Positions 9,528 to 32,000 of a stretch of DNA of 32,000 nt are shown in pieces (the stretch's first letter is position 1; each line of letters begins with the position of its first letter). Source of the stretch: Flavobacteriaceae bacterium (GTDB taxonomy: Bacteria > Bacteroidota > Bacteroidia > Flavobacteriales > Flavobacteriaceae). Position numbers and translations under genes: made by a program. The notes under the pieces are model-generated. The model made no database searches and had not been told where the DNA came from. It saw only the letters and a list, made by a program, of their open reading frames with translations. The stretch is taken from positions 4,710,001 through 4,742,000 of the forward strand of contig OZ245049.1 of assembly GCA_965224465.1 (NCBI GenBank). Direction: 5' to 3'.

Positions 9528-9568
9528 GCGTTTAATTTAATTAGTTTAACAAAAATAAATACTATAAA

Positions 9569-11819: not shown

Positions 11820-11851
11820 TTACAATATAAAACAGAGATAAATTATCTTAT

Positions 11852-13305: not shown

Positions 13306-13306
13306 T

Positions 13307-16000: not shown

Positions 16001-16005
16001 ATATA

Positions 16006-16716: not shown

Positions 16717-16727
16717 AAGTATTTACT

Positions 16728-17504
16728 ATGACGAAACCATATTATATGATAAAATTTAGTGGATTTGCATGTATGTTTGAAATACGTGTGAATGATATTC
16801 CTGTAATAACATTAAATTTAGACGGTCAAGCAGCGACTAATATCCCTATAAATTATGCTATTTTTAAAAGCGGTTTACAAGAAATAACGGTAAAGGTGCT
16901 TCCAAACTCTGGTAATAGCATATTTAATGAAGGAGCTGAATTTAAATATGATATTCTACTTTATGATGTATCAAATGGTTTTGAATTTAAAGAAGAATTT
17001 TCAGGCTATAAAACACCTAAAGTTAATAAAAACAAAATGATACCTGCATTTATAAATAAAATACCTTTTCAAGCTACTGTTCCTTTTTCTTTAAAAACCT
17101 TATGGTTAAATGGGGAGGATATTAGTGAAATAAATGATTTACAAGCGAAATTAAGAAGAGCTTATTATAAAATAGGAAACCTTATAATAACTAAAAATTA
17201 TGATGCTTTTAAAAAAGAAATAGCTAATAGAGAATTTAATATGGCTAACTCAATGTATTTAGAGCCTGTGGATTCTAGAGCACGTTTAAATGGACTCATT
17301 AAAGATTTTGAAAGCGGTTTCGATGAGATGGTATTAAACAAAGAAGCATTAGTAGTGATTTCAGCAAATAATAAGAAAGTGTCCCTTAAAACTTTTTATG
17401 GAGAACCTGCTTTAAAATTTTTAAACCGCAAAACAAAAGAAGAAATACAATTAGATATAGAATTCTATTTTAATAAAGAAACCAATACATTTGAAATCAT
17501 TTAA
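16728..17504 (+). CDS. Hypothetical cytoplasmic protein, last gene of the vgrG operon
   Basis: 258-aa ORF, 11 nt after the previous stop. No signal peptide and no recognised motif. Confidence 0.55.
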   Translation: MTKPYYMIKFSGFACMFEIRVNDIPVITLNLDGQAATNIPINYAIFKSGLQEITVKVLPNSGNSIFNEGAEFKYDILLYDVSNGFEFKEEFSGYKTPKVNKNKMIPAFINKIPFQATVPFSLKTLWLNGEDISEINDLQAKLRRAYYKIGNLIITKNYDAFKKEIANREFNMANSMYLEPVDSRARLNGLIKDFESGFDEMVLNKEALVVISANNKKVSLKTFYGEPALKFLNRKTKEEIQLDIEFYFNKETNTFEII

Positions 17505-17818
17505 AAGATCAGTACAAAAAGAATAGGTGTAGATAAGCTGAATTCAGTCGTACTTATAATACAGCTTCATATACTGCTGGTTCTGGTGAAAAGATACGTT
17601 TGATGCAAAAGAAACTATTGGTTTGAAGATAGAAGCAGGTATAATCATCAAAGCTAAAACGGTCGTTATTATTGTAGAGTTTTATGCAGAAGCTTACTTT
17701 TATTTGCCATCGATTCCGATGCTAGACCTACCAACTATGTGATCGCATTGATTTCAAATTCGTGCGATTGCGTCTTTAGTGACTATATGTTTTTAAATAA
17801 TTACAACAAAGCTCTTGC

Positions 17819-18220
17819 GTGAAATTATGTTGTTTATCGGCTACTTGTATTTGTATTGCTGTTTTTTTCTTGAGGATGGGTTTTGGAAAGGAAGCAGAAG
17901 AGGTAACTACTTTTTTATGCCAAAGTAATATTACCATAAGTACTCTCAAAAGCCAAGTGCCAAAAGCACATTGGTCTATTGATTTAGAGTATCTTTATGA
18001 TGTTAATAAATATTCTCAGATTATTATTATGTGTCGTTTAAATATAAATAACAATCAATTTTTTCCAATTCCCAAAAAAACAATTCCACGTTATATTGCG
18101 GTAACAATACCTGTGATTCGAAATGATTCGCAGTCAGGGTTTGTTTATAGAGATGGTCTCAATGATCGTGTTTATGTAGGGACACAACAAGAATTACTAA
18201 ACAAAAAAATATGGAAATAG
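17819..18220 (+). CDS. Hypothetical protein (weak call; alternative ATG at 17876)
   Basis: 133-aa ORF with a GTG start. Overlaps the next ORF by 10 nt. No motif recognised. Confidence 0.35.
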   Translation: MKLCCLSATCICIAVFFLRMGFGKEAEEVTTFLCQSNITISTLKSQVPKAHWSIDLEYLYDVNKYSQIIIMCRLNINNNQFFPIPKKTIPRYIAVTIPVIRNDSQSGFVYRDGLNDRVYVGTQQELLNKKIWK

Positions 18221-19047
18221 ATTTAGAATACCAACATGCACAAAAATTTAAGAGTAAATACTTGCGGCCTTTGCCTTTTGTAATTCGTACAGATTCACTT
18301 CAAATTGATATTAAAACCAAACAGAATAAAAAATTATACCCTGTTTTTAATAACAATTGTATCAAAGAATATTTAGCATCGAATAAGGCGCCTGCAAAAA
18401 TGGATATTTATATGCATATAGGGATTTGTTCTTTTTTTTGGATACTATTACCTGTTTTATCTTGTATAAGAAACGGAGAATTATTGAGTTTTAGTATTTA
18501 TTTGATCTTCTTTTTTTTAGGCTTGCCTTTTCCTTTTATGGCTTACAGGTCTTTTAAACAGTATAACATAGCTCCTGAGCAAACTTATGTTACTTTTGAT
18601 CGGCTTAATAGCTTATTAATAATGCCTACATCAGATGAACAAAGTTATTTTACCATACCTTTTTCTCATTTAATCGCGGGAGAGGTTGTAACAGGAACCA
18701 AACATACTTATGGAGGTAAGTCTTTAGCTTTTATAAATGATACCAAACCTGTAATGTTCCGACCATGGAGACCAAAGGATCATATAAGTTTGCACCATGC
18801 AGCGACTACCCCAAAAGAGATATGGTCATATTACGTTTGGTATATGGATAAAAACCGTCCCTTACCTGAGTGTGAAGCTTTTGATAAGTTTAGAGAAAAA
18901 GATTTTGAGCGTCGTAAATCAGCAGGGTTTCCGCCTCCGTTATTTAAGAGTAGGGTTCCAACCCTAGAGGCAAGCCTGGAGCAACAATTACTACGTGAAA
19001 CTTTTTGGAAAGACCAAAAGAGAAATAGAGTGCTGTTTTTAAGTTGA
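18211..19047 (+). CDS. Hypothetical membrane protein
   Basis: 278 aa. Two adjacent hydrophobic helices (IYMHIGICSFFWILLPVLSCI; FSIYLIFFFLGLPFPFMAY). No family recognised. Confidence 0.55.
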   Translation: MEIDLEYQHAQKFKSKYLRPLPFVIRTDSLQIDIKTKQNKKLYPVFNNNCIKEYLASNKAPAKMDIYMHIGICSFFWILLPVLSCIRNGELLSFSIYLIFFFLGLPFPFMAYRSFKQYNIAPEQTYVTFDRLNSLLIMPTSDEQSYFTIPFSHLIAGEVVTGTKHTYGGKSLAFINDTKPVMFRPWRPKDHISLHHAATTPKEIWSYYVWYMDKNRPLPECEAFDKFREKDFERRKSAGFPPPLFKSRVPTLEASLEQQLLRETFWKDQKRNRVLFLS

Positions 19048-19097
19048 ATTCTAACAACTAAAAATCCTGTTAGCACAAATCTACAAGCAATGTATTC

Positions 19098-19118
19098 GCG
19101 CGGATTTTAAATCCGCGC
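19098..19118. other. GC-rich perfect palindrome (possible terminator or recombination/protein-binding site)
   Basis: gcgcggattt t aaatccgcgc: 10-bp arms in an otherwise AT-rich region, 50 nt after the stop at 19047. No T-run follows. Confidence 0.5.
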
Positions 19119-19608
19119 CAGTAACTGTGTGTCTGCTAGGAATGTTTCACGGAAAGGTTTACGGAAAAAGGTGATTTAGGTATCATTAGAAAATACATTA
19201 GATGTTTGTGAGTTTTTAAGTAATGAAAAAAAAGATGGAAAAGAAGAACAATATTTTACAAATATTATAGCAGGCACAAAATTAAAAACAAGCCTATTTT
19301 ACAAAGTAGATATTAAAGCAAACTTAAATACCCCTATAAAAGTACTTAAAATTGAAGGAGATTATGCACAAATAAAAGTAACATCTATTACTGCAACCTT
19401 AGTTAGAGATACAGATATTAATGATAACGTAAAACCATTTAATAGCAATAAACTTTATACTATCAAAAATCTTACTACGGTTAATAAAGCATTTAATGGT
19501 CTTGCAACTAAAGATGCCACATTCAATACAAAACAAGTAAAAGCACCAAGAAATTGGAGAACAAATTTAAACAGAACTGTTACCTTTTACCCAAATGGCT
19601 ATGGTAAA

Positions 19609-21954
19609 GTGTTTTGGGTAGAAAAAACATTTATTTCCAAAATAACAGAAAAAATAAAAAAAGAAGCAGGTATAATTACCTCAATTATTCCTGACTATTT
19701 TTTAACAGAAGAACAAAAATACGAAACAGTTGAAAGAGAAGCCAAAACAGGAGAAAAAACTACATTATATGTAGATGTATGTAAGGCATATATCGAAGTC
19801 CCTTTTAGAACCGATGTAGAAGAAGTAACTGTAGAAAAAGAAAAAGTAGTTGACTTACGTAAATTTAAAAAAGTAAAAGACGATAAAAAAGACCTTTGGT
19901 ATAAAGTAGTATTAGATGATACAACTAGTAGCCAATGTGTAGCAGTAAAAGGCTGGGTAAAAGAAAAGGATCTTGACAAATTTAGCGCTTACGATTGGCA
20001 AAAATTTGGTTTTAAAGATCTAGACGCAGGTAATGAATACATATACTCTGTAAAAGACTTACGTGAGGCAACAGATAGTGCCGATTTTGTAACCGAAATT
20101 TGGGATAAAACAATAGATACAGATGGCAATAAAGTATTAGATATACTAGAGCTTATTAGAGCGTTTAGTAAACCAGAAATAGCACAAAAACTATCTCGTT
20201 TGGTATGTAAGCACAAAAATGAATGGTCTTATACTATGGACGAAATAAAACCAGAAGTAAAAGAACTCTATGATTTTGGTATACAATTAGAAGAAGTTAC
20301 AGCCGAAAAACAAAAACTAGAAACCGAAAGGGATGATAGTTTAGCCAAAATGGAAACCAAAATAGAAAATTTAATGTGGTGGGATGAGGCAAGTAAAAAA
20401 CCCTACACAGCACCCATAAAAGAAGAAGATAAAACAAAAACGAGTAGCACCAAAAGACCTTCTATGTTGCCAGAAGGTACAGTGGTAGAAGAAATACCAC
20501 AAAAAGATGTTGTACCTTTAGACAATAAAACAACAGCAGCTAAACCAGATGCTAAACCAACGAAAGATAGTATACCAACGACAAGTACAACCGCTGCTCC
20601 AGCACCAGAAACTAAAGTAGAAGAAAAAGAAGTGCCGCCAAAACGTATGTTTCCAAGTACCAATATAGTACATCACTTTCATCCAATTGCTTTTATTAGG
20701 CAAATGATGTTGTTGCAGGATAATAGTACTGATGAGTGTCCAGAACTTGTATGGGGTAAAAAAGTTTCTTGTGAATTTAGAAAACGAGTAATCCAAATAA
20801 GTAAACGTTTAGAATGTGACCCTAATCACTTAATGACAGCAATGGCATTGGAAACTGGTGGTAAATTTGATTCAGCAATTAAAAATTCAAAAGGTTATGT
20901 TGGTTTAATCCAATTTGGTGATGATGCAGTAAAAGATATAAATAAAAACTTTTTTCTTTATAGAGTAAAAATTACAAAGAGTTATTTACAAAAACTCACA
21001 GCTGAAGACCAATTGCTTTACGTGGAATATTTTTTACATCGACAAAAAGGAAAATTAAAAACTTTAGCAGATTTTTATCTAGCTGTATTAATGCCTATCG
21101 ATGTTGGTAAAGGGAATCAAAAAGATTATGTTGTCTTTGATAGTTCATTAGCACTAAATTATAAACCTAATGGTAAAGTAAAAAAAGATGTTACTTGGAT
21201 TAGAAAAAAAGGGTATAAAGCTAATCCGACTTTCCATAGAGAGGGAGATGAATACAAAAAAAACAGTAAAGGAGTTGTTTACGAGCGTCATGGGGAAGAA
21301 GGAGGTAAAACGTATGTTTGGGAAATAGCTGAAGCCATACAAGAATGGTATGATAAGGGAGTTACTGAAACTAATAATTCTAACACTTGCACTTGTAATA
21401 AAGATTGTTCTTGTGGTAAAGATTGTGTTGATTTGACCAATAAGGTCGTCTGGATAACACAGTACAATAAAAGTGAAATTAAAAACGGTATAATGAATAC
21501 TGGAGGGTGTTGGAGAACATCACAAAAACTGTTGATAAGTTCTGGTTTGGGTAAAACTTCTGGTTATCCAAAAGGTATGATTACTACAGCAAAAGAAAAT
21601 GACACTCATACTTCTATTGCTGTCACAACTGATGCAAAAGCAGGTGTAGAGTATATAAATACAGAATTAGAAAAAGGTAACCCTATATTAGTTGGTTTAA
21701 ATCATACGCTTAATTATAGGTTTAAAGGGGAAGTGATAAACGAAGGTACTACAGATCATTACGTTGTAATTGTTGGTAGAGGTTGTAAAGACAATAAACA
21801 GTATTATAGGTTTTATGAAGTAGGTACTAGTTACCCTGAAAAAGGTCAGCACTTAAATAATAAGTTATTTTTGGAAAGTAATTTTTCATTAAAAGGGAAT
21901 CCTGCAAGTAATACAAGTAAAGAATATTTTGTAAGCCAAGTAAGAAAAAATTAA
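19609..21954 (+). CDS. Toxin module 1: long N-terminal scaffold plus lytic-transglycosylase-like plus papain-fold Cys peptidase/amidase-like domains
   Basis: Frame open from 19180 but with no ATG/GTG/TTG before the GTG at 19609. N-terminal region: SH3-like pattern (KVLKIEGDYAQIKV; WYKVVLDD...VAVKGWVKEKDL), EF-hand loop DTDGNKVLDILE, coiled coil, Pro/Thr/Lys linker, junction RMFPSTNIVHHFHPIAF. Then AMALETGGKFD...GYVGLIQFG (GH23-like E...GLxQ signature), a Cys-rich linker CTCNKDCSCGKDC, then GGCWRTSQ ... TTDHYVVIVGRG (Cys/His peptidase-like). Confidence 0.75.
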   Translation: MFWVEKTFISKITEKIKKEAGIITSIIPDYFLTEEQKYETVEREAKTGEKTTLYVDVCKAYIEVPFRTDVEEVTVEKEKVVDLRKFKKVKDDKKDLWYKVVLDDTTSSQCVAVKGWVKEKDLDKFSAYDWQKFGFKDLDAGNEYIYSVKDLREATDSADFVTEIWDKTIDTDGNKVLDILELIRAFSKPEIAQKLSRLVCKHKNEWSYTMDEIKPEVKELYDFGIQLEEVTAEKQKLETERDDSLAKMETKIENLMWWDEASKKPYTAPIKEEDKTKTSSTKRPSMLPEGTVVEEIPQKDVVPLDNKTTAAKPDAKPTKDSIPTTSTTAAPAPETKVEEKEVPPKRMFPSTNIVHHFHPIAFIRQMMLLQDNSTDECPELVWGKKVSCEFRKRVIQISKRLECDPNHLMTAMALETGGKFDSAIKNSKGYVGLIQFGDDAVKDINKNFFLYRVKITKSYLQKLTAEDQLLYVEYFLHRQKGKLKTLADFYLAVLMPIDVGKGNQKDYVVFDSSLALNYKPNGKVKKDVTWIRKKGYKANPTFHREGDEYKKNSKGVVYERHGEEGGKTYVWEIAEAIQEWYDKGVTETNNSNTCTCNKDCSCGKDCVDLTNKVVWITQYNKSEIKNGIMNTGGCWRTSQKLLISSGLGKTSGYPKGMITTAKENDTHTSIAVTTDAKAGVEYINTELEKGNPILVGLNHTLNYRFKGEVINEGTTDHYVVIVGRGCKDNKQYYRFYEVGTSYPEKGQHLNNKLFLESNFSLKGNPASNTSKEYFVSQVRKN
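20603..20692 (+). repeat. Cassette junction repeat, copy 1
   Basis: 90 nt with only 4 mismatches to 22853-22942 (hand alignment, constant offset 2250 nt). Flanks diverge on both sides. Confidence 0.9.
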
Positions 21955-21959
21955 AAGGA

Positions 21960-22772
21960 ATGAAAAAAATATTAATTTTATTATTTATAAGTTTTATTTT
22001 AGTTTCTTGTTTCAAAACTAAGAAATCAAATAATACAAAAGAATTAAAAAAGGAAGTAAATAAAGAGTTAAATAAACCAAACTTAAAAAAGGAATATTTT
22101 TCTAATATTAAAGATTTTAAGGAGTTTATAAACAAAAAATGGGTAAATACAGAAATTGAAACACCTTGTGACCCTGAAAATAGAAGTATAGAGATAAACG
22201 GTGATTATCTTATTGATGAAACAGGAATGGAAGCCTTTAAATGTGAAATACTAAATATAAAAAAAATAAATTCATCTACTTTTGAATTTGAAATTATACA
22301 TGATTGCTCGTATGGAGATACTTTTAAGGTAGAAATTCTTGATTATAATAATAGATTGGTTAAATGGTCTTTTTACAACGGTATATATTATGAAGCTAGA
22401 CCTAATGATTTAGTTTGCAAAGAATATGAAGATTTACAAATTTATAAAAAACCAAAAGATGTGAAAACTCCCTTAAAATGGATAGGTAAATATTATTTTG
22501 AAGAAGAAGGAATAGGTCATACAATTATAATATCGAAAAAAGAAATGATTTATGAGTCTGTTGGGATTAGGTATTATCATAAATATAAATTAAGTGCAAA
22601 TCAAGTGAAAGATACACTAGCTTTGTATTATCATAAAGGATTGTCAGGAAATGAAGATGCATTAGAAAAATATTTACCACTGATAAGAATGTATAAAAAT
22701 AATGAACATATTTATATTAAATCAGTTTTAACTAAAACCTCATATGCACCTGTGTTAATAGAGAAATACTGA
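21960..22772 (+). CDS. Lipoprotein, immunity candidate 1
   Basis: 270 aa. MKKILILLFISFILVSCFKT lipobox. Starts 5 nt after the stop of toxin module 1. Confidence 0.7.
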   Translation: MKKILILLFISFILVSCFKTKKSNNTKELKKEVNKELNKPNLKKEYFSNIKDFKEFINKKWVNTEIETPCDPENRSIEINGDYLIDETGMEAFKCEILNIKKINSSTFEFEIIHDCSYGDTFKVEILDYNNRLVKWSFYNGIYYEARPNDLVCKEYEDLQIYKKPKDVKTPLKWIGKYYFEEEGIGHTIIISKKEMIYESVGIRYYHKYKLSANQVKDTLALYYHKGLSGNEDALEKYLPLIRMYKNNEHIYIKSVLTKTSYAPVLIEKY

Positions 22773-22852
22773 ATATAGTATATGGAAAAGTTGTAGTAAA
22801 ACAACAGTAGTTAAACCAACGGAAGATAGTACTCCAACAAAAGCACCTGCAA

Positions 22853-22958
22853 CACCAGAAACTAAAGTAGAAGAAAAAGAAGTGCCACCAGAACGTATGT
22901 TTCCAAGTACAGATATAGTACATCACTTTCATCCAATTGCTTGGGTGGAGCAGATGAG
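22853..22958 (+). repeat. Cassette junction repeat, copy 2
   Basis: 22853-22942 matches copy 1 (86/90). 22879-22958 matches copy 3 at 27550-27629 (76/80). Confidence 0.9.
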
Positions 22959-24180
22959 GTTGTTGGAAAAACAAACTGGTGAATGCTATTGTAATAGAGA
23001 TTTTGAAGCTGACGACCTTAAAGCAATGGTAAAAAGAATTAGAGATAATACTTTCTATAAAGGTAAGTCTATTACTAAATTTCATCAAGAAAGATTATTT
23101 CATGGTCGCGGAGGTGTGCCTGAATCAGATCAAAACTTTGAGAAGTTTAAAAATGTACTAAATAAATCGTTTACTAAATACGGTATAACAAATTGTATTC
23201 ATAAAATACATTTTTTAGCCAATATGTATGTAGAGACAATGTACTTTACAGCCACCGAGGAATTACCAGATCCTACTAAAAAAAGATATAATGAATACAA
23301 ACCCTATGTTGGTCGTGGTTTTATGCATTTAACTTGGGATTATCATTACAAAGAATATTCTGAAATATCAGGGAATACAGATGTTAAATCAGGGACTAAC
23401 TATAAAAAAGTAGCAAGTGATTTAGAATTGGCAGCTGACACAGCAGGTTGGTTTTGGGAAAAAAGCAAACTGAATTCTTTATCAGAAACAGATGATATTT
23501 TAAAAACCACAAAAAAAATTAATGGTAGCACTCATGGATATGAAGACCGTAGAATTGCTTGGATTAAACTTAAAGAAATATTTAATTACCCTCATGGTTG
23601 TAGTACCGATAGTAGCAAACACGAAGCACCTGTATATGGTGAAGGTGTTTTAGAAGAAATGCGTGAATGGGCAGATAAGCATGTGCAGTATAAAAAAGAA
23701 CTTGGAAGTAAATATAGAACAGCTGTTACGGAAGAAGCTTTAGGTCGATTAGATTGTTCTGAATTCGTATGCCGTTATCTCCATAAACTGGGTGTAACAA
23801 GTACAATTAAATCTATTGGAACTCAATTTATGACTACTCAAGCAAAATTTAGAACTAGTTTAGGTAATGATAATATTGAGTATATTTTAGGAAGTGAAAA
23901 GTCAGATTTTATTCCTCAAGCAGGTGATGTTTTTGTTTGGCGAACAACTGGAGGTGGACATACAGGTATTGTACATAGCGTAGATGGAGATAAAGTAACA
24001 ATATTAGAATCTATTGGACATAACGGCTCATCAGATGAAAAGTTCAATAATAATAATGGAGGGTATGAAGGTAAAAACTCCACACGTACCTCAGTTTATG
24101 ATCGTACAGGAGGTGCTCTATCAGGACACGCAGGGTGGAAAGGCTATTTCAGACCTAAAAATTACACTAAAAAAATATAA
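22882..24180 (+). CDS. Toxin module 2 (orphan-type): junction plus GH19-like glycosidase plus NlpC/P60-like peptidase
   Basis: Frame open from 22762. It retains about 45 codons homologous to the module 1 linker, and has the track GTG at 22882 and a conserved ATG at 22897. IHFLANMYVETMYF and YVGRGFMHLTWDYHYKEY (GH19 signatures), then LDCSEFVCRYL and GGGHTGIVHSV (NlpC/P60 Cys and His). Confidence 0.8.
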   Translation: MPPERMFPSTDIVHHFHPIAWVEQMRLLEKQTGECYCNRDFEADDLKAMVKRIRDNTFYKGKSITKFHQERLFHGRGGVPESDQNFEKFKNVLNKSFTKYGITNCIHKIHFLANMYVETMYFTATEELPDPTKKRYNEYKPYVGRGFMHLTWDYHYKEYSEISGNTDVKSGTNYKKVASDLELAADTAGWFWEKSKLNSLSETDDILKTTKKINGSTHGYEDRRIAWIKLKEIFNYPHGCSTDSSKHEAPVYGEGVLEEMREWADKHVQYKKELGSKYRTAVTEEALGRLDCSEFVCRYLHKLGVTSTIKSIGTQFMTTQAKFRTSLGNDNIEYILGSEKSDFIPQAGDVFVWRTTGGGHTGIVHSVDGDKVTILESIGHNGSSDEKFNNNNGGYEGKNSTRTSVYDRTGGALSGHAGWKGYFRPKNYTKKI

Positions 24181-24181
24181 A

Positions 24182-24883
24182 ATGAAATATTTAATAATAC
24201 TGGTATCTATTATTTTATTTACTAACTGTAAAGGGCAAACCGAAACGAAATCAAAAGCTATAACTACAAACGTTGAGTATTTATCTGAGCAAGAATTAGA
24301 ACCCAAGTCAAAAGAAGAACTTCGTTTGATTAGAAATGAGATGTTTGCAAGAAAGGGATATATCTTTAAAGGAAAAGACTTGCAAAATTATTTTTCAAAA
24401 CAAAAATGGTATGAGCCAAACTCTAACATTTCAATTTCTTTTACAGATGAAGAACAATTATATATTGATAAAATTAAAAGCTTAGAAAACGGAAAAAGTG
24501 ATATAACTCCAAAAAAAATAAATTGCATTGATTTTTACCATAAAGAAATTGAAAAAATATATCCTTTAACTGGAGAAAAGATTAGGAATGATCAATTACC
24601 AGATAAATTGATTGATATTGAATTACCTCACAAAGGTTTTACGGATAATATAATGGACGTTTTATCTGACGGATCAATTTTTAAATTGGACTGTAATGAG
24701 AATTCAAAATATAAACTAATTATAACTTATTATCCTGATCAAGATTTGCATGTTTACTTAATTATTAGTGACCAACAACAAATCAAAAAATTATATGGAA
24801 CTTATGTTCATGATTTTAAAAATGTAGATAAATATAATTTCATATTGGATCAGTATCCGTCCGACCATCCCCATATTTTTTAG
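24182..24883 (+). CDS. YARHG-domain lipoprotein, immunity candidate 2; 3' end replaced by IS66 insertion
   Basis: True start is likely the ATG at 24182 (MKYLIILVSIILFTNCKGQ), 1 nt after the toxin stop. LRLIRNEMFARKGYIFKGKDLQNYFSKQKWYEP is the YARHG motif. The last 10 codons (YPSDHPHIF, with the Q codon spanning the boundary) are read from the IS66 left end. Confidence 0.75.
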   Translation: MKYLIILVSIILFTNCKGQTETKSKAITTNVEYLSEQELEPKSKEELRLIRNEMFARKGYIFKGKDLQNYFSKQKWYEPNSNISISFTDEEQLYIDKIKSLENGKSDITPKKINCIDFYHKEIEKIYPLTGEKIRNDQLPDKLIDIELPHKGFTDNIMDVLSDGSIFKLDCNENSKYKLIITYYPDQDLHVYLIISDQQQIKKLYGTYVHDFKNVDKYNFILDQYPSDHPHIF

Positions 24884-24910
24884 TGGAAAAATAGCTTCTA
24901 TTTTTGACGC

Positions 24911-25219
24911 ATGAGAAAAAACGAAGAAAAACGAGCCTATATGACAGCTGTTGTTTCCGATTGGAAGTTGAGTGATTTAACCTTGGAAGATTATTGTAAA
25001 AGTCATAAAATTACACTTTGTAAATTTAGGTACTGGAATAAGAAATTGACCTCCAAAAATGCCAGTGGATTTTCAAAGGTTGAACTTATTGATGCTCCTA
25101 TTGAAAACAGCAGAAATTCTATTTTAGATAGTTTTAAAATCGAGTATCCAACAGGTGTAAATTTGGTCATTAACAAAGAGATTACACTTATCGATTTACA
25201 AAATTTAATTCATTTGTAA
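24911..25219 (+). CDS. IS66-family accessory protein (orf1/TnpA-like)
   Basis: 102-aa first ORF of the three-gene IS66 layout. Its stop is 1 nt before the next ATG. Confidence 0.7.
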   Translation: MRKNEEKRAYMTAVVSDWKLSDLTLEDYCKSHKITLCKFRYWNKKLTSKNASGFSKVELIDAPIENSRNSILDSFKIEYPTGVNLVINKEITLIDLQNLIHL

Positions 25220-25220
25220 T

Positions 25221-25562
25221 ATGCTAAATCTTTCAAGTGAACTTGATTTTCATCTGTACCTAGAACCCACAGATATGCGTAAAGGATTTAATGGTTTGTC
25301 AGGTGTTATCCGTAATAATTTAGAAGAGGATCCTAGTAATGGAGCTGTTTTTATCTTCATAAATAAACCTCGAAACAAAATAAAACTATTGCATTGGCAA
25401 GCAGGTGGATTTGTACTGTATTATAAACGATTGGAACGAGGTACTTTTGAACTTCCGGTGTATGATAATCTGAAAGGAAGTATACAAATGAAATACAGCC
25501 AAATGGTGATGCTTCTTGATGGACTGTCTATAAAAAACATCCAACAAAGGAAACGTTATTAA
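25221..25562 (+). CDS. tnpB: IS66 Orf2-like protein (TnpB)
   Basis: 113 aa. PTDMRKGFNGLSGVI and KIKLLHWQAGGFVLYYKRLERGTFELP are typical IS66 orf2 motifs. Confidence 0.9.
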   Translation: MLNLSSELDFHLYLEPTDMRKGFNGLSGVIRNNLEEDPSNGAVFIFINKPRNKIKLLHWQAGGFVLYYKRLERGTFELPVYDNLKGSIQMKYSQMVMLLDGLSIKNIQQRKRY

Positions 25563-25630
25563 TGTCTTTTTACAGGTAAAAAACCTAATAAAACCAGGCT
25601 GTTCATGTATATTTTTCGTATATTTAATGT

Positions 25631-27316
25631 ATGGAAAAAGACTTAGAACAGCTATCAAAAAAAGCACTTATAGCCCTATTACAGGAGGCTAATTCTAAGT
25701 CAGATTTACTTATCAAAAAGACAAATTCTCTTAGCTCAAAGAATGAGTTACTTAATACAAAGACAAGTTCTCTTAGCGCAAAGAATGAGTTACTTACTAT
25801 AAAGACAAAAGACGTTACTTTACAAAAGGCTATCCTAGAAGCTCAATATAAAGAATTAGAGACAAAATACGGATATGGACAATTTCAATTAGAGCAATTA
25901 CGTCGTATGATTTTTGGGACAAAACGTGAGCGTTTTATAATGGCTAATAACCCTTTTCAAATGCAACTCCCTTTCGAAGTTTTAAAAGAGATGCCCCAGG
26001 AAGAAGAAGCTCCTGTAAACATTACATATCAACGTAAAAAGGCTAAAAAAAGAACGATTGGAAGTTTAAATCTCCCCAGTCATTTACCTGTTGAAATTAT
26101 TAATTTAGAGCCTAAAGAGACTATAGAGAACCGAATAAAAATAGGTGAAGAAATTACAGATAAATTAGAACTTGTACCCACAAAGCTATACATAAAACGA
26201 TATGTCAGACCAAAATACGCCTTAAAAAAGAAAGTACAAGACACATTGATTGACAATGGAAACCCTTTAGGTATTAAGACCGTTATTATGGCTGATTTAC
26301 CAAGTTTTGCTATTGAAAAATCTGTAGCATCAAACAGCCTGCTAGCACAGCTATTGATTGATAAATTCTTAGATCACTTACCGTATTATCGACAGATAGA
26401 ACGTTTTAAACGAGAAGGAATCTCTATAAGTTCATCTACAATAAATGGATGGCAAAACAGCTTAGGACACTTACTTAAGCCGCTGTATCAGGCTATGAAA
26501 AACACGGTGCTGTCACAAGGATATGTACAGGCCGATGAATCAACTATTCCAGTGCTAGACAAACAGAAAAAAGGAAAAACTCATACTGGATATCATTGGG
26601 TGTACTATTCACCCATACAAAAAATGGTATTGTTTGATTATCGTCCCTCTAGATCTAAACATGGACCTAGAGAAATGCTTAAAAACTTTAAAGGGTATTT
26701 ACAAACAGATGGCTACGCTGTATATGATGAATTTGCACATAAAAAAGATGTCACTTTAGTAGGGTGTATGGCACATGCACGTCGTTATTTTGAGAAAGCA
26801 CTAGACTATGACAAAGTAAAAGCGAGTCATGCGATGGTACTCATTCAACAATTATATGCCATTGAGCGACATTGTAAAAAACAGGAATTTACTCCTGAGC
26901 AACGGCATGCTTATCGCCTAGATAAAGCACAACCAATAATGGATACATTTATAAAATGGTTGATCCATAACACCCAAGGAAGCTTACCGAAAAGTCCACT
27001 AGGAAAAGCAATTACTTATACATTAAAACGATGGGACTACTTAAAAGCCTACCTGTATGACGGTACTTTAGAACTAGATAATAACCTAGTAGAAGGATCT
27101 ATCAGAACATTAGCTATTGGACGTAAAAATTATTTATTTGCAGGTAGCCATGATGCTGCAAAAAATGCAGCGATGTTCTATTCCTTTTTTGGGACTTGTA
27201 AAAAACACCAAGTAAACCCCTATAAATGGATGAAAAAAATACTGGATATAATCCCTGATTACAATGCTCAAAAATTAAGTGAGCTATTTCCACAAAATTT
27301 AAACCTCGATCAATAA
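25631..27316 (+). CDS. tnpC: IS66-family transposase (TnpC)
   Basis: 561 aa. N-terminal coiled coil, LPYYRQIERFKREGI, QADESTIPVLD, GYLQTDGYAVYD, GCMAHARRYF, LDNNLVEGSIRTLAIGRKNYLFAGS. Confidence 0.95.
   Translation: MEKDLEQLSKKALIALLQEANSKSDLLIKKTNSLSSKNELLNTKTSSLSAKNELLTIKTKDVTLQKAILEAQYKELETKYGYGQFQLEQLRRMIFGTKRERFIMANNPFQMQLPFEVLKEMPQEEEAPVNITYQRKKAKKRTIGSLNLPSHLPVEIINLEPKETIENRIKIGEEITDKLELVPTKLYIKRYVRPKYALKKKVQDTLIDNGNPLGIKTVIMADLPSFAIEKSVASNSLLAQLLIDKFLDHLPYYRQIERFKREGISISSSTINGWQNSLGHLLKPLYQAMKNTVLSQGYVQADESTIPVLDKQKKGKTHTGYHWVYYSPIQKMVLFDYRPSRSKHGPREMLKNFKGYLQTDGYAVYDEFAHKKDVTLVGCMAHARRYFEKALDYDKVKASHAMVLIQQLYAIERHCKKQEFTPEQRHAYRLDKAQPIMDTFIKWLIHNTQGSLPKSPLGKAITYTLKRWDYLKAYLYDGTLELDNNLVEGSIRTLAIGRKNYLFAGSHDAAKNAAMFYSFFGTCKKHQVNPYKWMKKILDIIPDYNAQKLSELFPQNLNLDQ
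25718..25801 (+). repeat. 42-bp tandem duplication inside tnpC coiled-coil region
   Basis: aagacaaattctcttagctcaaagaatgagttacttaataca / aagacaagttctcttagcgcaaagaatgagttacttactata (about 38/42 identical). Encodes KTNSLSSKNELLNT / KTSSLSAKNELLTI. Confidence 0.85.
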
Positions 27317-27330
27317 ATCGAGGTTTTTTT
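27302..27330 (+). terminator. Terminator at end of tnpC (inside IS66)
   Basis: Stem aacctcgat / atcgaggtt, with a loop containing the TAA stop, followed by a T-run. Confidence 0.7.
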
Positions 27331-27371
27331 ATGTATTTTTAATTCCTATACGTACTTCGTCGGACGGATAC

Positions 27372-27497
27372 TTGGATCATGATAGTTTAGAGGTTACTAA
27401 AACCAATTACACTAATACAGATAATTATGAAGAAAAAGAAGTTTCAAGAGAAGTAACTAGCTATAAGTTAAAAGATATAGGTTTAGTACAGCAATAA
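27372..27497 (+). pseudogene. Displaced 3' end of the YARHG immunity gene
   Basis: Reading on from the target duplication in the same frame as 24182.. gives LDHDSLEVTKTNYTNTDNYEEKEVSREVTSYKLKDIGLVQQ, stop at 27495-27497. Confidence 0.7.
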
Positions 27498-27549
27498 ACA
27501 AAAAGTTATTAATTAACAGATCAAGCCACAGCATAGTATACCGTAGAAA

Positions 27550-27699
27550 GAAGTGCCACCAGAACGTATGTTTCCAAGTACCAATATAGTACATCACTTT
27601 TATCCAATTGCTTGGGTGGAGTAGATGAGACTTGTTTTTGGAGAGGGTGGCGGAGATTGTTTTTGTAATAAAGATTTTACAGTTGATGATGTAAAGAAA
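27550..27699 (+). pseudogene. Toxin module 3, 5' fragment (junction copy 3 with in-frame TAG)
   Basis: EVPPERMFPSTNIVHHFYPIAWVE*MRLVFGEGGGDCFCNKDFTVDDVKK. TAG at 27622-27624 where modules 1, 2 and 4 have CAG (Gln). His to Tyr change in the motif. Upstream linker shortened relative to copies 1 and 2. Confidence 0.85.
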
Positions 27700-28821
27700 G
27701 CTGAATTCAAGTCACAAACGCAACTTTTAGTTAAATAATAATTGTTCCATTACAAATATAGGGTTTTGATATTTATGTCTCTTCCTAGGTCTGTTATTTA
27801 ATTTTGTTTCTACCTCTTTGATTCTTTGATCTGTTAGGTTTGTAAAGTCACTTCCTTTGGCAAAATATTGTCTAATCAAACCATTTAAATTTTCGTTAGA
27901 TCCTCTTTCCCAAGAGTGATATGGATGCGCAAAAAAGTAATCAATACATAAATTTTCTGCAACCTGCTCATGGCCTGCAAATTCTTTTCCATTATCAGCT
28001 GTTATAGTATGTAGATAAGGCTTCCAGTCTTCTAATATTTCATTGATAGCTTTAGTGACAACAACTGCTTCTTTAGAGCTTACTTTTTTCATTTTAAGCA
28101 TTCCAGAAGCTCTATCATTTACGGTAAGTATGGCTTGATTATGGTTTTTACCTATGATTAAATCGACCTCTAAATCTCCAAATCGATTTCTTTGTTCAAC
28201 AACTTCAGGGCGTTGTTCTATACTAATACGATTCTTTATAACCCCTCTAGAATCCTTTGATGAGCCACGTTTTCTATATCTCCTTCCCTGTCTGCGAAGG
28301 TGTGTATGTAAATCACCATCATTCCTCTTGTCTTCCCTAATATGCTGATATATACGCTCAATAGACACCGTTTCTTTACCTTGTTTTTTTAGGACACCAA
28401 CTACTTGCTCAGGACTATAATCGTCTCGCAATAACAACTCTATTGCTTGTTGAATATCTTCTGTAAAGCGTTTTCTTTTAGGCTTTTCTTTATGACGTTT
28501 AGCATACTTTTTTTGGGCTAATTCATGCTTGTAAACTCCATTTCTTTTGTCTGAATTACGCTTAATCTCTTTGCTAATAACAGACTTGTCTTTTCCTATA
28601 GCAGCTGCTATCTCAACCTGTTTATAACCTTGTTTTAACATGCAACAAATTGTGTATCTTTGCGCTTGGGTGATGTGTTTCATACAACTTCTTTTTTCGA
28701 GATTTGAGACCGTAAGATACATATCCATCAAGACAAGAAAGGTAGGTTTTCCTACTTTTCTGTTTTGAAAATATAACCATCATAGAATCAAATCGAAAAG
28801 TTGCGTTTATTAGTTGAATTT
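27700..28821 (-). mobile_element. IS30-family insertion sequence (about 1.12 kb) inserted in toxin module 3
   Basis: Imperfect ~26-bp terminal inverted repeats gaattcaagtcacaaacgcaactttt (27703-27728) and aaaagttgcgtttattagttgaattt (28796-28821). Apparent duplication aagaaa (27694-27699 and 28822-28827). Removing the IS plus one repeat restores the frame ..DDVKK IVKTITG.. Exact ends are uncertain by a few nt. Confidence 0.85.
27727..28731 (-). CDS. IS30-family transposase
   Basis: 334-aa ORF; the likely true start is MKHITQAQR at 28683. N-terminal HTH (YKQVEIAAAIGKDKSVISKEIKRN), DDE core with LEVDLIIG, TITADNGKEF, SWERGSNENLNGLIRQYF. Confidence 0.93.
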   Translation of the reverse strand: MMDMYLTVSNLEKRSCMKHITQAQRYTICCMLKQGYKQVEIAAAIGKDKSVISKEIKRNSDKRNGVYKHELAQKKYAKRHKEKPKRKRFTEDIQQAIELLLRDDYSPEQVVGVLKKQGKETVSIERIYQHIREDKRNDGDLHTHLRRQGRRYRKRGSSKDSRGVIKNRISIEQRPEVVEQRNRFGDLEVDLIIGKNHNQAILTVNDRASGMLKMKKVSSKEAVVVTKAINEILEDWKPYLHTITADNGKEFAGHEQVAENLCIDYFFAHPYHSWERGSNENLNGLIRQYFAKGSDFTNLTDQRIKEVETKLNNRPRKRHKYQNPIFVMEQLLFN

Positions 28822-30102
28822 AAGAAAATTGTTAAAACCATTACAGGAAAAGAAGAAATTTGGCAAGGAAAACAAGGTTATCCATGCCCTATAACAGATA
28901 AAAGTTATGACACACTAGTTAATGAATTAAACATAATGTTTGAAAAATATGATATTAATGAGTGTATTCAAAAAATAGCATTTTTAGCCCAAGTAGGAGC
29001 AGAAACAGGAATGTTTAGGCAATCAGTAGAAGAAAAGGGAAATACATCATCTAGCCAAAGTGTTTACAAAGGAAGAGGTATCATACAATTAACTGGAGGT
29101 ATAGTTACTTCAACGGGTTTGTATGATGAACCTGATGTATATCAAAGTTATGCTGATTATATTAAAGATCAGGATATTGTAACTAGCCCTAATACAATTG
29201 CAGAAAATATTCATTATACAATTGATTCTGCAGGATGGTATTTTTCAAAGCATAAAAAAATACCTAAATGGAGTACTACTACTACTACTGGGGCAAATGC
29301 AAGCGTTTATAAAAAGAAAAGGAAGCATTTTAGTAAAGCTTTGGGCAAATCTTTAAATGAAACATCTTTATTAATTAAAGAAGGTGCTAAGTATTTCTGG
29401 TTACAATCTAAGGTTATAAATGGGTATGGAAGAAGTCAATATTTGAAACCAGATCCAAATGGTTGGTCTCATAGGCTTAAGGTATTTAATAAATTGAATC
29501 CTATTTTTAAATTTAATACAGCTTGTATAAATAATCCTAATATTTATAAATTAAAGGATCGTGCATCATGGATACAGATAGCATATGGTGAATTATGGAC
29601 AGAAGAAATTTCTGGTTCAAAACATAATCCTAGAATACTTGAATATCATGCATCCGCAGGTCATACAGGTAGTAATATAACTGATGATAGTAATTGGCCA
29701 TGGTGTTCTTCTTTTGTATGTTGGGTATTTACTCAATCAAAAGAATATACAGGGGAAATAACGGCAAAAGCAACTAATTGGAATAATTGGGGCAAGGAAG
29801 ATTCTAAAGATAAACCTATGTATGGGTCATTAGCTGTTATAGATTGGGACGAAAATGATGATGGTGCAGGACATGTTGGATTTGTTGTTAATGTAGATGG
29901 AGACAATGTTTATTTACTAGGAGGTAATCAAACAGGTGGTGATAAAAGTACTTATGGTAAAGTATGTGTATCTCGCTATGACAAATCTGTAATTGATTAT
30001 TTTAGAATACCTGAAAACTATACTCCAGAACAAAAAGATTATAAATATGATGAATTTAAAAATACAAACCTCAGTGTTGAAACCTTATCTAGTACTCGTT
30101 AA
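28822..30102 (+). pseudogene. Toxin module 3, 3' part: GH19-like glycosidase plus TIGR02594/NlpC-P60-like domain
   Basis: The track ORF 28801..30102 starts at a TTG inside the IS30 inverted repeat. IAFLAQVGAETGMF and YKGRGIIQLTGG (GH19 signatures). WIQIAYGEL...NPRILEYHASAG, WPWCSSFVCWVF, AGHVGFVV...LLGGNQ (NlpC/P60-superfamily, TIGR02594-like). Confidence 0.8.
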
Positions 30103-31045
30103 AATAAGTATACTTGCTTTTTGTTTAATTTCGTGTAAAAATGAGAAAAAAGAAAATCTAATTTCTTCTCAGAATAGCATAAATAAAACTTACAAAGGAA
30201 GAAAAGTTATTAAAGAAGTTATGTTTAAATATAATAAACAAAACTTAAAATCTATATTTTTATTAAAAGAGGAAGGAGAACTCGGTACTAAAGGTTTTAC
30301 TAAAGAGTTAGAAGTTTTAATTTTAAATAAAGATATTTTAATTGATAGCTTTTCTTTTAAAAATAAAAGTATCCTTTGTGACTTAAAGATTTTAATTGAT
30401 GAAATTAAGGTTATAAATGAGGATAATCATCAAATTTTATTCTTTCCTATTATACATAGCTGTGATGGTGAAGAACCTAAATTGCTAAAAATAAATATTT
30501 GGGATGATAAGAAATCAAGTTATGAAATAGGTATTCCTGTATATTTTCAAAATTCAGAAAGTAAAAGAGAGTTTGCAGAAAGTGTTTCTTTAATTAATTT
30601 TAAATCAAATCAAATTAGAAATAACGCATATATTACAATAGGTAAAGAGACAAAAATTAATCTATTTAAAATTAAGGGTGAAAAATCTAATAAGATAGAT
30701 AGAGAAAATCCTAAATGTTTTACAGAATCTGATATTTCTAAAATCAAAGATTTTTTTGCTGTACCAACAAAAGATAATTTTTTTAATAATTTTGATAAAA
30801 AAGAAAATATAAGTGTAGAGTATATAGTTAGTTACTTGAAGAGTACAGATTGTTTAAATCAAAATATATCTATAACTAAAATTAATGATTGTACAGATGA
30901 ATTGAAATGTGAGATCTATTGTTCTTTCAATTTAACACAAGATGAAAAAGATGACGGAGAGCTAAGTGAGGAAACTTTATATATTTATTTTAATAAAATT
31001 AATGGCAAAATCTACTTAAATAAATTAGAGTCTGAAGGTAGATAA
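30047..31045 (+). CDS. Lipoprotein, immunity candidate 3
   Basis: Track ORF 29993..31045. The plausible start is the ATG at 30047, giving MMNLKIQTSVLKPYLVLVKISILAFCLISCKNE (lipobox LISC). Overlaps the toxin 3' end. Start uncertain. Confidence 0.65.
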   Translation: MMNLKIQTSVLKPYLVLVKISILAFCLISCKNEKKENLISSQNSINKTYKGRKVIKEVMFKYNKQNLKSIFLLKEEGELGTKGFTKELEVLILNKDILIDSFSFKNKSILCDLKILIDEIKVINEDNHQILFFPIIHSCDGEEPKLLKINIWDDKKSSYEIGIPVYFQNSESKREFAESVSLINFKSNQIRNNAYITIGKETKINLFKIKGEKSNKIDRENPKCFTESDISKIKDFFAVPTKDNFFNNFDKKENISVEYIVSYLKSTDCLNQNISITKINDCTDELKCEIYCSFNLTQDEKDDGELSEETLYIYFNKINGKIYLNKLESEGR

Positions 31046-31067
31046 GTGTTTTTCCACCTCTTCTGAT

Positions 31068-32000
31068 GTGAGCGTCACGCTCGTAACAACTCCAACACCA
31101 AAAACTAAAGTATATGAAAAAGAACCAAAAGAAACCGATAATGATATTGTGACTACAGAAGCGTTTTCTGTACGAAAAGTAACAGCTACTAAGGATAAAG
31201 ATGGTACAGAATGGTTACAAGTAAAAGGTAAAAGAAAACATAAAGATAAACAAGGTTGGATAAAATTAAGTGAACTAACAGAGATAAACCCATATGAATG
31301 GCAAATCCTTAATGATACCGGATCACAATACTTTTATCAATTTGGAGATTCTGTAGAAAATACCGAGCCTCATAATTTTGTTACTACATTATGGGAGCAA
31401 TTAAAGCAATACGATAGCGATAATGATAAAGTGTTAAGCGTATATGAGTTACAAAAAGCAAGAAGTTCAGAAGCAGGAGCTAAAATACTAAGTAAATTTA
31501 TATGTAAGCATTTTAGTGAGTGGGATACTAATAGCAAAATAAGAGATTTTAAAACTGAGGTAGAAAATATTTATAAAAAAGGAATAGAGCAAGAAACAGT
31601 TAAAGCTGAGATAACAGCTTTAGAAGAGGCAAGAGATAATAAAATAGCACTCTTAGAAGATAAAATTAATAACCTTTGTTTTTGGGATAAAATCCAAACA
31701 GGAGATCTTGTACCTACCAGTAAACGTAAACAAGATTATATTGACAAACATAAACCTGTGCGTACAAGTATGTTACCGAAAGGCACAAGTAAAGAAGAGA
31801 TACGTTTAGCAAAAGAGTTTGATGACTTAGAGAAAGAAAGAACACCTAGAAAATTCCCTACGGATTCTAATGTGTATCACTTCCATCCTATTGCATTTGT
31901 TGAGCAGATGAAGATGATATGTGCTACTACACCACCTTGGATGGAGGTGGCTTTAGCAGAAGCTAAAAAAGCTAAGTTTATTAGAGAAACTTTGAGTCCA
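31068..32000 (+). CDS. Toxin module 4 (partial, continues past window): N-terminal scaffold paralog plus junction plus start of a TIGR02594-like domain
   Basis: Not in the ORF track because there is no stop inside the window. Frame open from 31029; the first start is GTG at 31068. Paralogous to module 1: TEWLQVKGKRKHKDKQGWIKLSEL, EF-hand DSDNDKVLSVYE, FICKHFSEWD, coiled coil, junction KFPTDSNVYHFHPIAFVEQM (31854-31910), then PPWMEVALAEAKKAKFIRE. Confidence 0.75.
   Translation, partial: MSVTLVTTPTPKTKVYEKEPKETDNDIVTTEAFSVRKVTATKDKDGTEWLQVKGKRKHKDKQGWIKLSELTEINPYEWQILNDTGSQYFYQFGDSVENTEPHNFVTTLWEQLKQYDSDNDKVLSVYELQKARSSEAGAKILSKFICKHFSEWDTNSKIRDFKTEVENIYKKGIEQETVKAEITALEEARDNKIALLEDKINNLCFWDKIQTGDLVPTSKRKQDYIDKHKPVRTSMLPKGTSKEEIRLAKEFDDLEKERTPRKFPTDSNVYHFHPIAFVEQMKMICATTPPWMEVALAEAKKAKFIRETLSP

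Follow-up and report, generated by a model that had tools for sequence, protein, structure and literature searches.

A probable archive of 5′-truncated WHIX/TseP-family toxin cassettes and putative immunity genes in a Flavobacteriaceae genome

What does a row of toxin-like genes encode when its members share one short sequence, diverge completely beyond it, and lie near a type VI secretion system (T6SS) island without adjoining it? We addressed this question in a 32,000-nucleotide stretch of a Flavobacteriaceae bacterium genome (assembly GCA_965224465.1, contig OZ245049.1, positions 4,710,001 to 4,742,000; hereafter the window), which carries four plus-strand toxin modules, M1 to M4, and three lipoprotein-type genes, I1 to I3. 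A first-pass annotation had described a polymorphic-toxin locus built on an unrecognized scaffold and plausibly serving as T6SS cargo. Our analysis suggests that the region is probably an archive of 5′-truncated orphan cassettes and immunity genes belonging to a WHIX/TseP-family T6SS effector.

The four modules lie where they had first been placed and are tied together by a junction motif, [HY]F[HY]P[IL][AG][FW][IV], which occurred exactly four times in a six-frame translation of the window. All four matches were on the plus strand, one per module, at 20674 (M1), 22924 (M2), 27595 (M3) and 31878 (M4). M1 (19180-21954) is an open frame of 924 codons. The conserved region of M1 ends 3′ with the junction HFHPIAFI (20674-20697), and about 40 nt past it identity collapses. 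Ahead of the junction lie a Pro/Thr/Lys-rich linker and a pattern match to an EF-hand calcium-binding loop (DTDGNKVLDILE, 20116-20151), which aligns with the EF-hand region of TseP, an effector discussed below. M4 (31068-32000) starts at about scaffold residue 515 and contains a canonical EF-hand match (DSDNDKVLSVYE, 31413-31448) and a junction at 31878-31901; its toxin runs off the window, within which only the first 41 toxin codons fall. M4 belongs to a second, diverged subfamily, being 44% identical to the Pseudotamlana protein P0043.

M2 and M3 keep only the end of the scaffold, as had been noticed, with about 60 constant-region codons in M2 and about 25 in M3. M2, an orphan (22762-24180), is an open frame of 472 codons in which the retained scaffold end, or handle, spans ~22795-22965 and the junction 22924-22947; its sole start is a GTG coding for the Val of a conserved KEVPPE. 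In the 5′ fragment of M3 (27547-27702), handle and junction (HFYPIAWV, 27595-27618) together amount to about 25 codons; a stop codon lies directly upstream (27544-27546), and an in-frame TAG (27622-27624) falls within the junction. This fragment is separated from the 3′ part of M3 (28822-30102) by an IS30-like insertion on the minus strand (27703-28820). The first-pass annotation had recognized this insertion, and we found its transposase (27727-28731; Pfam HTH_38, 1.7e-8, and a weak rve match) and its 25-nt inverted repeats (27704-27728 and 28796-28820; 88% complementary). The TAG and the IS30 element leave M3 dead.

Divergence beyond the junction proved as sharp as first described. In DNA, M1 and M2 shared 70-93% identity within a stretch reaching from about 90 nt upstream of the motif start to 60 nt downstream of it; on either side, identity fell to the random level (23-43%). 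M2 and M3 were 73-93% identical over a still shorter stretch. When 14 paralogs from this genome were compared in 91 pairs, the median identity of the proteins was 92% over the last 100 aa or fewer ahead of the junction and 21% over the first 150 aa past it.

We then asked which scaffold precedes the junction. A search with M1 returned 24 proteins, at least 14 of them encoded on the window's own 5.24-Mb contig. The region before the junction was common to all, and the C-termini differed, including CHAP, M23, phage lysozyme, PG_binding_1 and other domains. Complete homologs are 930-1500 aa long and open with an N-terminal domain of about 340 aa, the head, which has an inserted SH3_3 domain and the consensus M[KR]VSYP..NAWHGGIHLEG..ILIQHDY..FYSLYHHLMP..IGYTG..HLEVFT. 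Scanned against Pfam and NCBIfam, the constant region returned nothing except SH3_3 and a weak EF-hand, so that the family is absent from both libraries, and a profile search of the Protein Data Bank (PDB) with the same region gave nothing significant. A profile search nevertheless reached proteobacterial proteins, including an 835-aa "pesticin C-terminus-like muramidase" of Aeromonas dhakensis, which is TseP. When A1, a profile of nine full-length constant regions, was aligned with A. dhakensis TseP using hhalign, the match had a probability of 99.7% and an E value of 7.6e-26 over A1 columns 1-664. Within this span lie the head motifs, a DW..GF segment, KHxxEW and the EF-hand. A junction-like sequence, WHFSPIG, stands in TseP shortly before its published boundary between N- and C-terminal domains. 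In alignments of 50-55 family members including Proteobacteria, the head residues W37, H38, H42, H88 and H106 were at least 90% conserved, the WHGGIH motif being W37-H38-G-G-I-H42, as was the Pro of the HFHP junction.

WHIX effectors were defined by a WHxxxH motif in a bipartite domain, peptidoglycan-targeting C-termini and downstream immunity genes with signal peptides (Fridman et al., bioRxiv 10.1101/2024.08.21.608442; PLoS Biol 2025, PMC12135965), and TseP is cited there as a secreted WHIX-containing protein. Because of this citation and the hhalign match to TseP, the constant region of the modules is identified by sequence as the WHIX scaffold, equivalent to the N-terminal domain of TseP (TsePN). 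It is thus a known scaffold, and the profile search upstream of the junction overturns the view that it was new. The WHIX domain is predicted to cap the C-terminal tail of VgrG and is sufficient for secretion (Salomon laboratory; PMC12135965). TsePN, a VgrG2-binding domain on which T6SS assembly depends, was reported to be a Zn-dependent amidase, the C-terminal domain (TsePC) is a lysozyme, and an EF-hand was noted in the protein (Wang et al., eLife 2025, PMC11893102). T6SS-dependent secretion and WHIX loading on the VgrG tail have been demonstrated for Aeromonas and Vibrio proteins only (PMC11893102, PMC12135965).

We utilized AlphaFold2 to model this scaffold. The head was predicted with high confidence (pLDDT 88.6 for the head of P0023 and >90 for residues 1-410 of P0004, a full-length paralog from the source genome). 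Beyond the head, the P0004 model comprised β-rich domains, EF-hand helices (631-668), long helices (682-727) and a disordered linker (746-812; pLDDT ~30), in agreement with the anatomy first read from M1 and M4. The junction itself was structured, with a strand (825-829) and a helix (831-842; pLDDT 73-96). Foldseek searches of the PDB with the models of P0004 (whole) and P0023 (head) gave no hit at E ≤ 0.001 and no M23/LytM fold, only local SH3-like matches, and we do not class the head as an M23 peptidase on these results. The head motifs WHGGIH, QH(D/E)Y and Y.HL are conserved, and the His of HLEVF is missing in P0005 and in the Tenacibaculum maritimum alleles. Within the main (P0004-type) subfamily, P0004 alone among the source-genome paralogs found has a complete head, and its residue 106 is Gln (YSLYHQLMP), a position that is His in at least 90% of the family (YSLYHHLMP). 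If the head is an amidase, the P0004 copy may be catalytically altered yet still able to load.

All four modules in the window are truncated at the 5′ end, and none holds the true N-terminus of the family; the WHxxxH head (residues 1-336) is missing. In a tblastn search against the window, residues 337-878 of P0004 mapped to 19195-20799 at 89.5% identity, and residues 1-336, the WHIX head, matched nowhere in the window. Coverage of the A1 profile gave the same picture, extending over positions 335-819 in M1, 761-819 in M2, about the last 25 codons in M3 and 515-820 in M4. Position 19180, initially taken as one start of M1, is a GTA codon immediately after a TAG (19177-19179). The first in-frame ATG, GTG or TTG is the GTG at 19609, which gives a 781-aa product identical to the database protein P0001.

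Reading the sequence upstream of M1 beside P0003, an intact headless paralog, revealed a remnant leader on the plus strand at 19129-19179. It consists of a GTG and 16 codons (SARNVSRKGLRKKVI) ending in the TAG and corresponds to the N-terminus of P0003, in which the TAG position is a Tyr. A 5′ breakpoint at scaffold residue ~337 is therefore present at least twice in the genome (M1 and P0003), and this shared breakpoint suggests that the headless unit was duplicated together with its flank. A perfect hairpin, GCGCGGATTTTAAATCCGCGC, precedes the 17-codon leader (19091-19179 for both), and the 5′ flank of M1 (19048-19200) had no match in plasmids.

Because the head that loads the effector onto the spike is missing, no module in the window would be loadable by the WHIX mechanism, and the link between these cassettes and the Hcp/VgrG/DUF4280 island upstream is one of neighborhood only. 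The evidence for T6SS delivery rests instead on orthologous loci elsewhere. We scanned species genomes of the Genome Taxonomy Database (GTDB), among which the source genome is not included, and identified 43 loci, mostly from Flavobacteriaceae (Aquimarina, Cellulophaga, Tamlana and Olleya) along with Fulvivirga, Saccharicrinis and a metagenome-assembled genome (MAG) of Saprospiraceae. Gene order was counted for 31 full-length Bacteroidota genes with upstream DNA. A PAAR gene lay directly 5′ in 30 of the 31, 17 of these 30 also followed vgrG, and the remaining gene followed tssD. A Bacteroidota-type tssD was present further upstream in two loci (L023 and L025), and the order vgrG-PAAR-effector was found at one chromosomal site in three T. 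maritimum strains. The T6SS of Bacteroidota is of subtype iii. As full-length relatives adjoin PAAR and usually also vgrG, the assignment of the family as T6SS cargo is supported on sequence grounds; this part of the original proposal stands, while the headless modules of the window do not amount to a complete effector. The full-length member following tssD rather than PAAR or vgrG lies in a Flavobacteriaceae MAG (JAKISG010000015, 9455-13087; L001/L005), with an eCIS_core gene about 8.5 kb upstream.

Beyond the junction, M1 to M3 encode paired peptidoglycan-hydrolase-like domains. In M1, a lytic-transglycosylase-like domain (20749-21204; phmmer against PDB 9udh_A, "lytic transglycosidase", E 1.6e-20) is followed by a papain-like "peptidase C39-like" domain (21409-21951; 9jdd_A and 9jg8_C, E 4e-31) with a Cys in GGCWRTS and a His in TDHYVVIVG. 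M2 combines a GH19-like domain (~23287-23553; Pfam Glyco_hydro_19, 8e-4; GH19-type endolysin PDB 9ms7, 4.6e-8) with a CHAP domain (~23752-24012; Pfam, 1.5e-9). M3 has the same order, with a GH19-like part within 28822-30102 homologous to that of M2 (phmmer, 1e-11) and a CHAP domain at ~29686-29928 (Pfam, 6e-11). By inspection only, the start of the M4 payload resembles the TIGR02594/CHAP-type domains of P0003 and P0007. Each visible payload would thus pair a glycan-cutting with a peptide-cutting module, an arrangement that fits action in the periplasm and immunity by periplasmic lipoproteins.

The payloads resembled their counterparts in other genera more closely than the scaffolds did. The M2 payload shared 74-77% identity with the C-terminal parts of two full-length proteins, P0026 of T. 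maritimum and P0018 of Aquimarina. The M3 payload matched the C-terminus of P0025 from T. maritimum at 74% identity, and the M1 payload was 68% identical to one from another genus. For the scaffolds, P0004 was 34-37% identical to those of T. maritimum and Aquimarina, and M1 was 51% identical to P0005. Since payloads are closer across genera (68-77%) than scaffolds (~34-51%), the comparison points to lateral movement of cassettes between genera. Single-linkage clustering of C-termini was uninformative, because the payloads are two-domain mosaics and chain together. Structures of close homologs of both M1 payload domains (20749-21951) have been solved (PDB 9JDD, 9JG8/9JG9 and 9UDH), and we found no paper for entries 9JDD, 9JG8 and 9UDH. 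The C39-like domain was solved as part of a 617-aa chain, and residues 1-427 of that chain show no match to this scaffold; M1-type payload domains are probably also used on other delivery scaffolds.

As the first-pass annotation had stated, a lipoprotein-type gene follows each of the first three toxins on the plus strand. I1 (21960-22772; MKKILILLFISFILVSC, lipobox LVSC) lies after a 5-nt gap, I2 (24182-24883; MKYLIILVSIILFTNC, lipobox FTNC) after a 1-nt gap, and I3 (30047-31045; ...ILAFCLISC, lipobox LISC) overlaps M3 by 56 nt. The three are mutually unrelated, I2 containing a YARHG domain (Pfam, 8e-22), and we consider them putative immunity genes for M1-, M2- and M3-type toxins, respectively. 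I1 homologs were located directly 3′ of M1-type toxins in five loci (L021, L026, L007, L046 and L047), and YARHG homologs of I2 followed M2-type toxins in five (L002, L024, L028, L021 and L046). I3 homologs, 57-58% identical, followed remnants of P0025-type toxins in T. maritimum (L047 and L048). Payload type and immunity type therefore co-vary across genera. In three loci, runs of three or four tandem I2-like YARHG paralogs sit behind a single M2-type payload or fragment (L021, 15651-18136; L028, 17211-19678; L013, 16519-19368), and these runs suggest amplification or stacking of immunity genes inside the arrays.

Comparison of alleles in relatives revealed C-terminal swapping and bore out the predicted collapse of identity at the junction. 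Ahead of the junction, five T. maritimum alleles shared 99.1-99.8% identity, against 18-31% beyond it; for Aquimarina P0018 and P0022 the values were 99.4% before and 19.5% after. Orphan cassettes downstream of the main gene keep profile positions of about 650-820 or 780-820, the junction and a different payload; such orphans were found in L002, L007, L013, L014, L016, L025, L028, L031, L034 and L046-L048. In T. maritimum, the orphan handles were 97-100% identical to the main gene in DNA over about 120 nt around the junction, with flanks at 17-43%. A P0025-type payload forms the C-terminus of the main gene in some strains; in L047 and L048 a 3′ remnant of it (98-100% identical) is left, with an I3-like gene behind it, a pattern analogous to displacement at Rhs and CdiA loci. 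Near-identical N-termini with unrelated C-termini, an adjacent immunity gene and standalone cassettes sharing a handle are features generic to polymorphic toxins (PMC3482391), and all were found here. The initial classification as a polymorphic-toxin locus therefore holds: a sharp junction closes the conserved region, the peptidoglycan-hydrolase C-termini vary, and both cognate immunity genes and orphan cassettes are present.

At the shared chromosomal site in the three strains of the fish pathogen T. maritimum (CP137246, LT634361 and CP137732, ~10000-23900; L046, L047 and L048), vgrG-PAAR-WHIX effector genes carry three different payloads. Downstream of each lies an array of 8-10 kb made up of orphan cassettes, toxin remnants and immunity genes. 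We found no paper describing this vgrG-PAAR-WHIX site with orphan arrays.

These results can be assembled into a model of the family and of the window. The model builds on homology, synteny, C-terminal swapping, handles and toxin-immunity co-inheritance, all observed computationally; loading, delivery, toxicity, protection and recombination in the source genome are the steps that we infer. The complete effector, of about 930-1500 aa, would be encoded directly after vgrG and PAAR and would begin with the WHIX head and its WHGGIH. Past the head would come β-rich domains, the EF-hand, long helices and the disordered Pro/Thr/Lys linker, then the short structured junction (..FPstn.VHHFHPIAw.eQM..), and last the variable payload, whose two peptidoglycan-cleaving domains would act on the glycan strand and the peptide in the periplasm of the target cell. 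The next gene downstream would supply a periplasmic lipoprotein neutralizing that payload. The cassettes of the window would keep the 3′ end of the constant region (~25 to ~500 codons) as a recombination handle, together with the junction, the payload and, in M1-M3, the matching immunity gene. Most likely they would serve as templates that replace the 3′ end of a full-length gene elsewhere (P0004- or P0035-type) by homologous recombination through the handle. They may also be remnants of payloads displaced by such recombination. The intact immunity genes would protect against relatives firing those payloads. IS66, IS30 and stop codons show that part of the archive is in decay.

Several observations weigh against this archive model. 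The full-length copies P0004 and P0035 of the source genome are unplaced, and their recombination with the window cassettes is something we only infer. The handles in the window are mutually only 70-93% identical, weaker than in T. maritimum, and WHIX loading onto VgrG has been demonstrated in Proteobacteria with a T6SS-i only. Moreover, the frames of M1 and M2 are long and uninterrupted (924 and 472 codons), and the intact paralog P0003, with the same 5′ breakpoint and its own start, could mean that headless forms are expressed. Loss of the head does not strictly exclude delivery, because TsePC alone bound VgrG2 and was weakly secreted in A. dhakensis (PMC11893102). M1, like P0003, and perhaps M4 might accordingly be active effectors expressed from their own starts and delivered by the T6SS without a WHIX head, for example if the retained distal scaffold or the payload binds VgrG, PAAR or DUF4280. 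The 781-aa product called from the GTG at 19609 and the spike island 1.7 kb upstream would suit this explanation. We nevertheless consider it unlikely: the P0003-type start is cut off in the window by the TAG at 19177, M2 and M3 have no credible start, the gene linked to PAAR, vgrG or tssD is the head-bearing one in all 31 related loci, and WHIX was the part sufficient for secretion (PMC12135965).

The intactness of all three immunity frames, set beside toxin modules that are all truncated and in one case disrupted, raises another explanation, namely that selection acts on I1-I3 only, as a purely defensive island against the WHIX payloads of neighbors, with the toxin fragments as decaying leftovers. 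Related arrays do contain runs of immunity genes without toxins, such as the three YARHG genes in L021 and L028, and orphan immunity islands are known in Bacteroidales (PMC12247911). However, the payload frames of M1, M2 and M3 remain open over 410-426 codons and share 68-77% identity with the payloads that full-length genes of other genera carry, and the 97-100% identity of T. maritimum handles to the main gene fits continuing recombination, not decay. We regard this explanation as less likely still, and it overlaps with the archive model instead of excluding it. The remaining candidate is that these are endolysin- or autolysin-type enzymes with a cell-wall-binding scaffold, derived from phage or housekeeping genes and lying near T6SS genes by chance. 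SH3-like, lysozyme, CHAP and GH19 domains are indeed typical of endolysins, but the full-length proteins have neither a signal peptide nor a type IX secretion system (T9SS) C-terminal domain, no phage genes are nearby, PAAR or vgrG synteny holds in 30 of 31 loci, each toxin is followed by an immunity-type lipoprotein gene, and the homologous TseP is experimentally T6SS-secreted. Already contradicted by synteny and homology, this candidate is very improbable. We likewise rejected T9SS cargo for the missing C-terminal sorting domain, and a phage endolysin for the missing phage context and the PAAR/vgrG synteny.

The surroundings of the cassettes were annotated in the same way. The window has a GC content of about 32%, and its first half contains T6SS tube and spike genes on the plus strand, namely two copies of TssD (9071-9457 and 9569-9964; Pfam, 3e-52 and 3e-47), VgrG (10050-11819; Phage_base_V, 1e-23) and a DUF4280 PAAR-like gene (12814-13305; 1e-15); small lipoprotein genes occur there as well. 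These genes (9071-13305) do not adjoin the cassettes, which begin 1.7 kb past the Hcp/VgrG/DUF4280 island, and a different putative effector (13307-16000, +) follows them directly. The latter is part of a separate putative effector module located directly 3′ of VgrG (11852-17504, +), in which the A1 profile found no match. Its first gene encodes a 321-aa protein of unknown family and is followed by the DUF4280 PAAR-like gene. Next come an 897-aa protein, in which an OmpA-like peptidoglycan-binding domain occupies the center and a long stretch at the C-terminus matches no family, a lipoprotein (16006-16716) and a 258-aa open reading frame (ORF). Upstream of the tube genes, an ORF at 8184-8693 (+) aligns through residues 1-74 with TssD/Hcp, though only with its C-terminal half (profile positions 55-127), and the remaining ~95 residues of the ORF match no family. 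The product may be an Hcp that is truncated or one that is extended. Further upstream, a single 1274-aa ORF (1526-5350, +) consists of two complete tandem acetyl-CoA-synthetase-type units, with ACAS_N, AMP-binding and AMP-binding_C each matched twice, and could be a natural fusion or the result of a lost stop between paralogs. Between cassettes 2 and 3 lie the genes of an IS66-family element (24911-27316, +), comprising a tnpA-like gene (24911-25219), tnpB (25221-25562; TnpB_IS66, 5e-34) and tnpC (25631-27316; DDE_Tnp_IS66, 5e-95); we looked for the ends of this element and did not locate them.

How does this locus compare with known systems? As in the published WHIX effectors (PMC12135965), the full-length relatives have a bipartite N-terminal WHxxxH domain, are encoded beside vgrG and PAAR, bear diverse peptidoglycan-targeting C-terminal extensions (GH19, lysozyme and NlpC/P60-like) and precede signal-peptide genes taken as immunity genes; the WHIX class was explicitly called polymorphic. 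Whereas the published set comes from Enterobacterales, Burkholderiales, Pseudomonadales, Aeromonadales and Vibrionales, the hosts here are Bacteroidota, in which the T6SS would be of subtype iii and the order is vgrG-PAAR-effector. We found no Bacteroidota term in the WHIX texts, the TseP paper or the 33 supplementary files of PMC12135965, an absence that is not proof. The proteins here also have a long extra β-rich insert and the Pro/Thr/Lys linker, the copies in the window lack the head, and downstream arrays of 5′-truncated, handle-bearing orphans are not described in the WHIX work.

Homology to TseP (PMC11893102) extends across the whole constant region, from the head motifs through DW..GF, the EF-hand and KHxxEW to WHFSPIG. 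Through its N-domain, TseP binds VgrG and contributes structurally to T6SS assembly, and its C-domain is, as here, a distinct cell-wall hydrolase, believed to have been joined on by recombination. Unlike TseP, which has one pesticin-like lysozyme, the payloads in the window have two domains (SLT and C39-like, or GH19-like and CHAP), and a search for the pesticin-like lysozyme C-domain (PF16754) gave no match in them. Neither orphan arrays nor strain-level polymorphism was reported for TseP (PMC11893102).

The organization resembles the Rhs, CdiA-CT and MafB arrays (Zhang et al. 2012, PMC3482391), where a main gene is followed by 5′-truncated cassettes of handle and junction, each with its own immunity gene, with a sharp identity drop at the junction and displaced C-termini downstream. 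Their scaffolds are unrelated to the present one, which has no YD repeats, DPxGL, FHA, VENN or LXG, and their payloads are mostly nucleases and other cytoplasmic toxins, whereas all payloads here are peptidoglycan hydrolases predicted to act in the periplasm. The statement that the locus is not of the Rhs, CdiA or LXG type was correct. We rejected Rhs, as Pfam found no RHS/YD domain in M1-M4 or the full-length relatives and the junction is HFHPIAF, and also CdiA, LXG, MafB and TANFOR, as Pfam and NCBIfam found no FHA with VENN, LXG, DUF1020 or TANFOR N-domain. The 2012 survey of polymorphic toxins contains no M23 or EF-hand scaffold of the WHIX/TsePN type (PMC3482391). The WHIX/TseP class, polymorphic T6SS cargo effectors and orphan cassettes in Rhs and CdiA loci are already known. 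What appears to be new is the combination of WHIX effectors in Bacteroidota with a conserved HFHPIAF-type handle, strain-level payload swapping and long orphan arrays, as well as an entirely headless array in the source genome.

A more far-reaching proposal is that Bacteroidota WHIX effectors undergo cassette switching, in which large headless archives, with at least 14 cassettes in the source genome, re-arm one or two vgrG-PAAR-linked master genes, along with exchange between genera. Gene conversion through the ~120-nt handle centered on the HFHPIAF junction may provide the route. We consider this proposal unlikely. In a stronger version, the headless forms with their own 17-codon leader (P0003/M1 type) may constitute a functional, WHIX-independent class of effectors.

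Overall, the window is better read as an archive of truncated cassettes than as an active effector gene on an unknown scaffold. The HFHPIAF-type junction offers a simple marker for mining cell-wall toxins and immunity proteins in Flavobacteriia, and the cassettes are a source of natural two-enzyme peptidoglycan hydrolase payloads. With these findings, the WHIX/TseP class, known from Proteobacteria with a T6SS-i, also takes in marine Bacteroidota, among them the fish pathogen T. maritimum. They further indicate that the class can behave like Rhs and CdiA, with a bounded handle, strain-specific payload swaps, displaced remnants and orphan immunity genes, and they provide a tractable case of how cargo (non-Rhs) T6SS effectors diversify.

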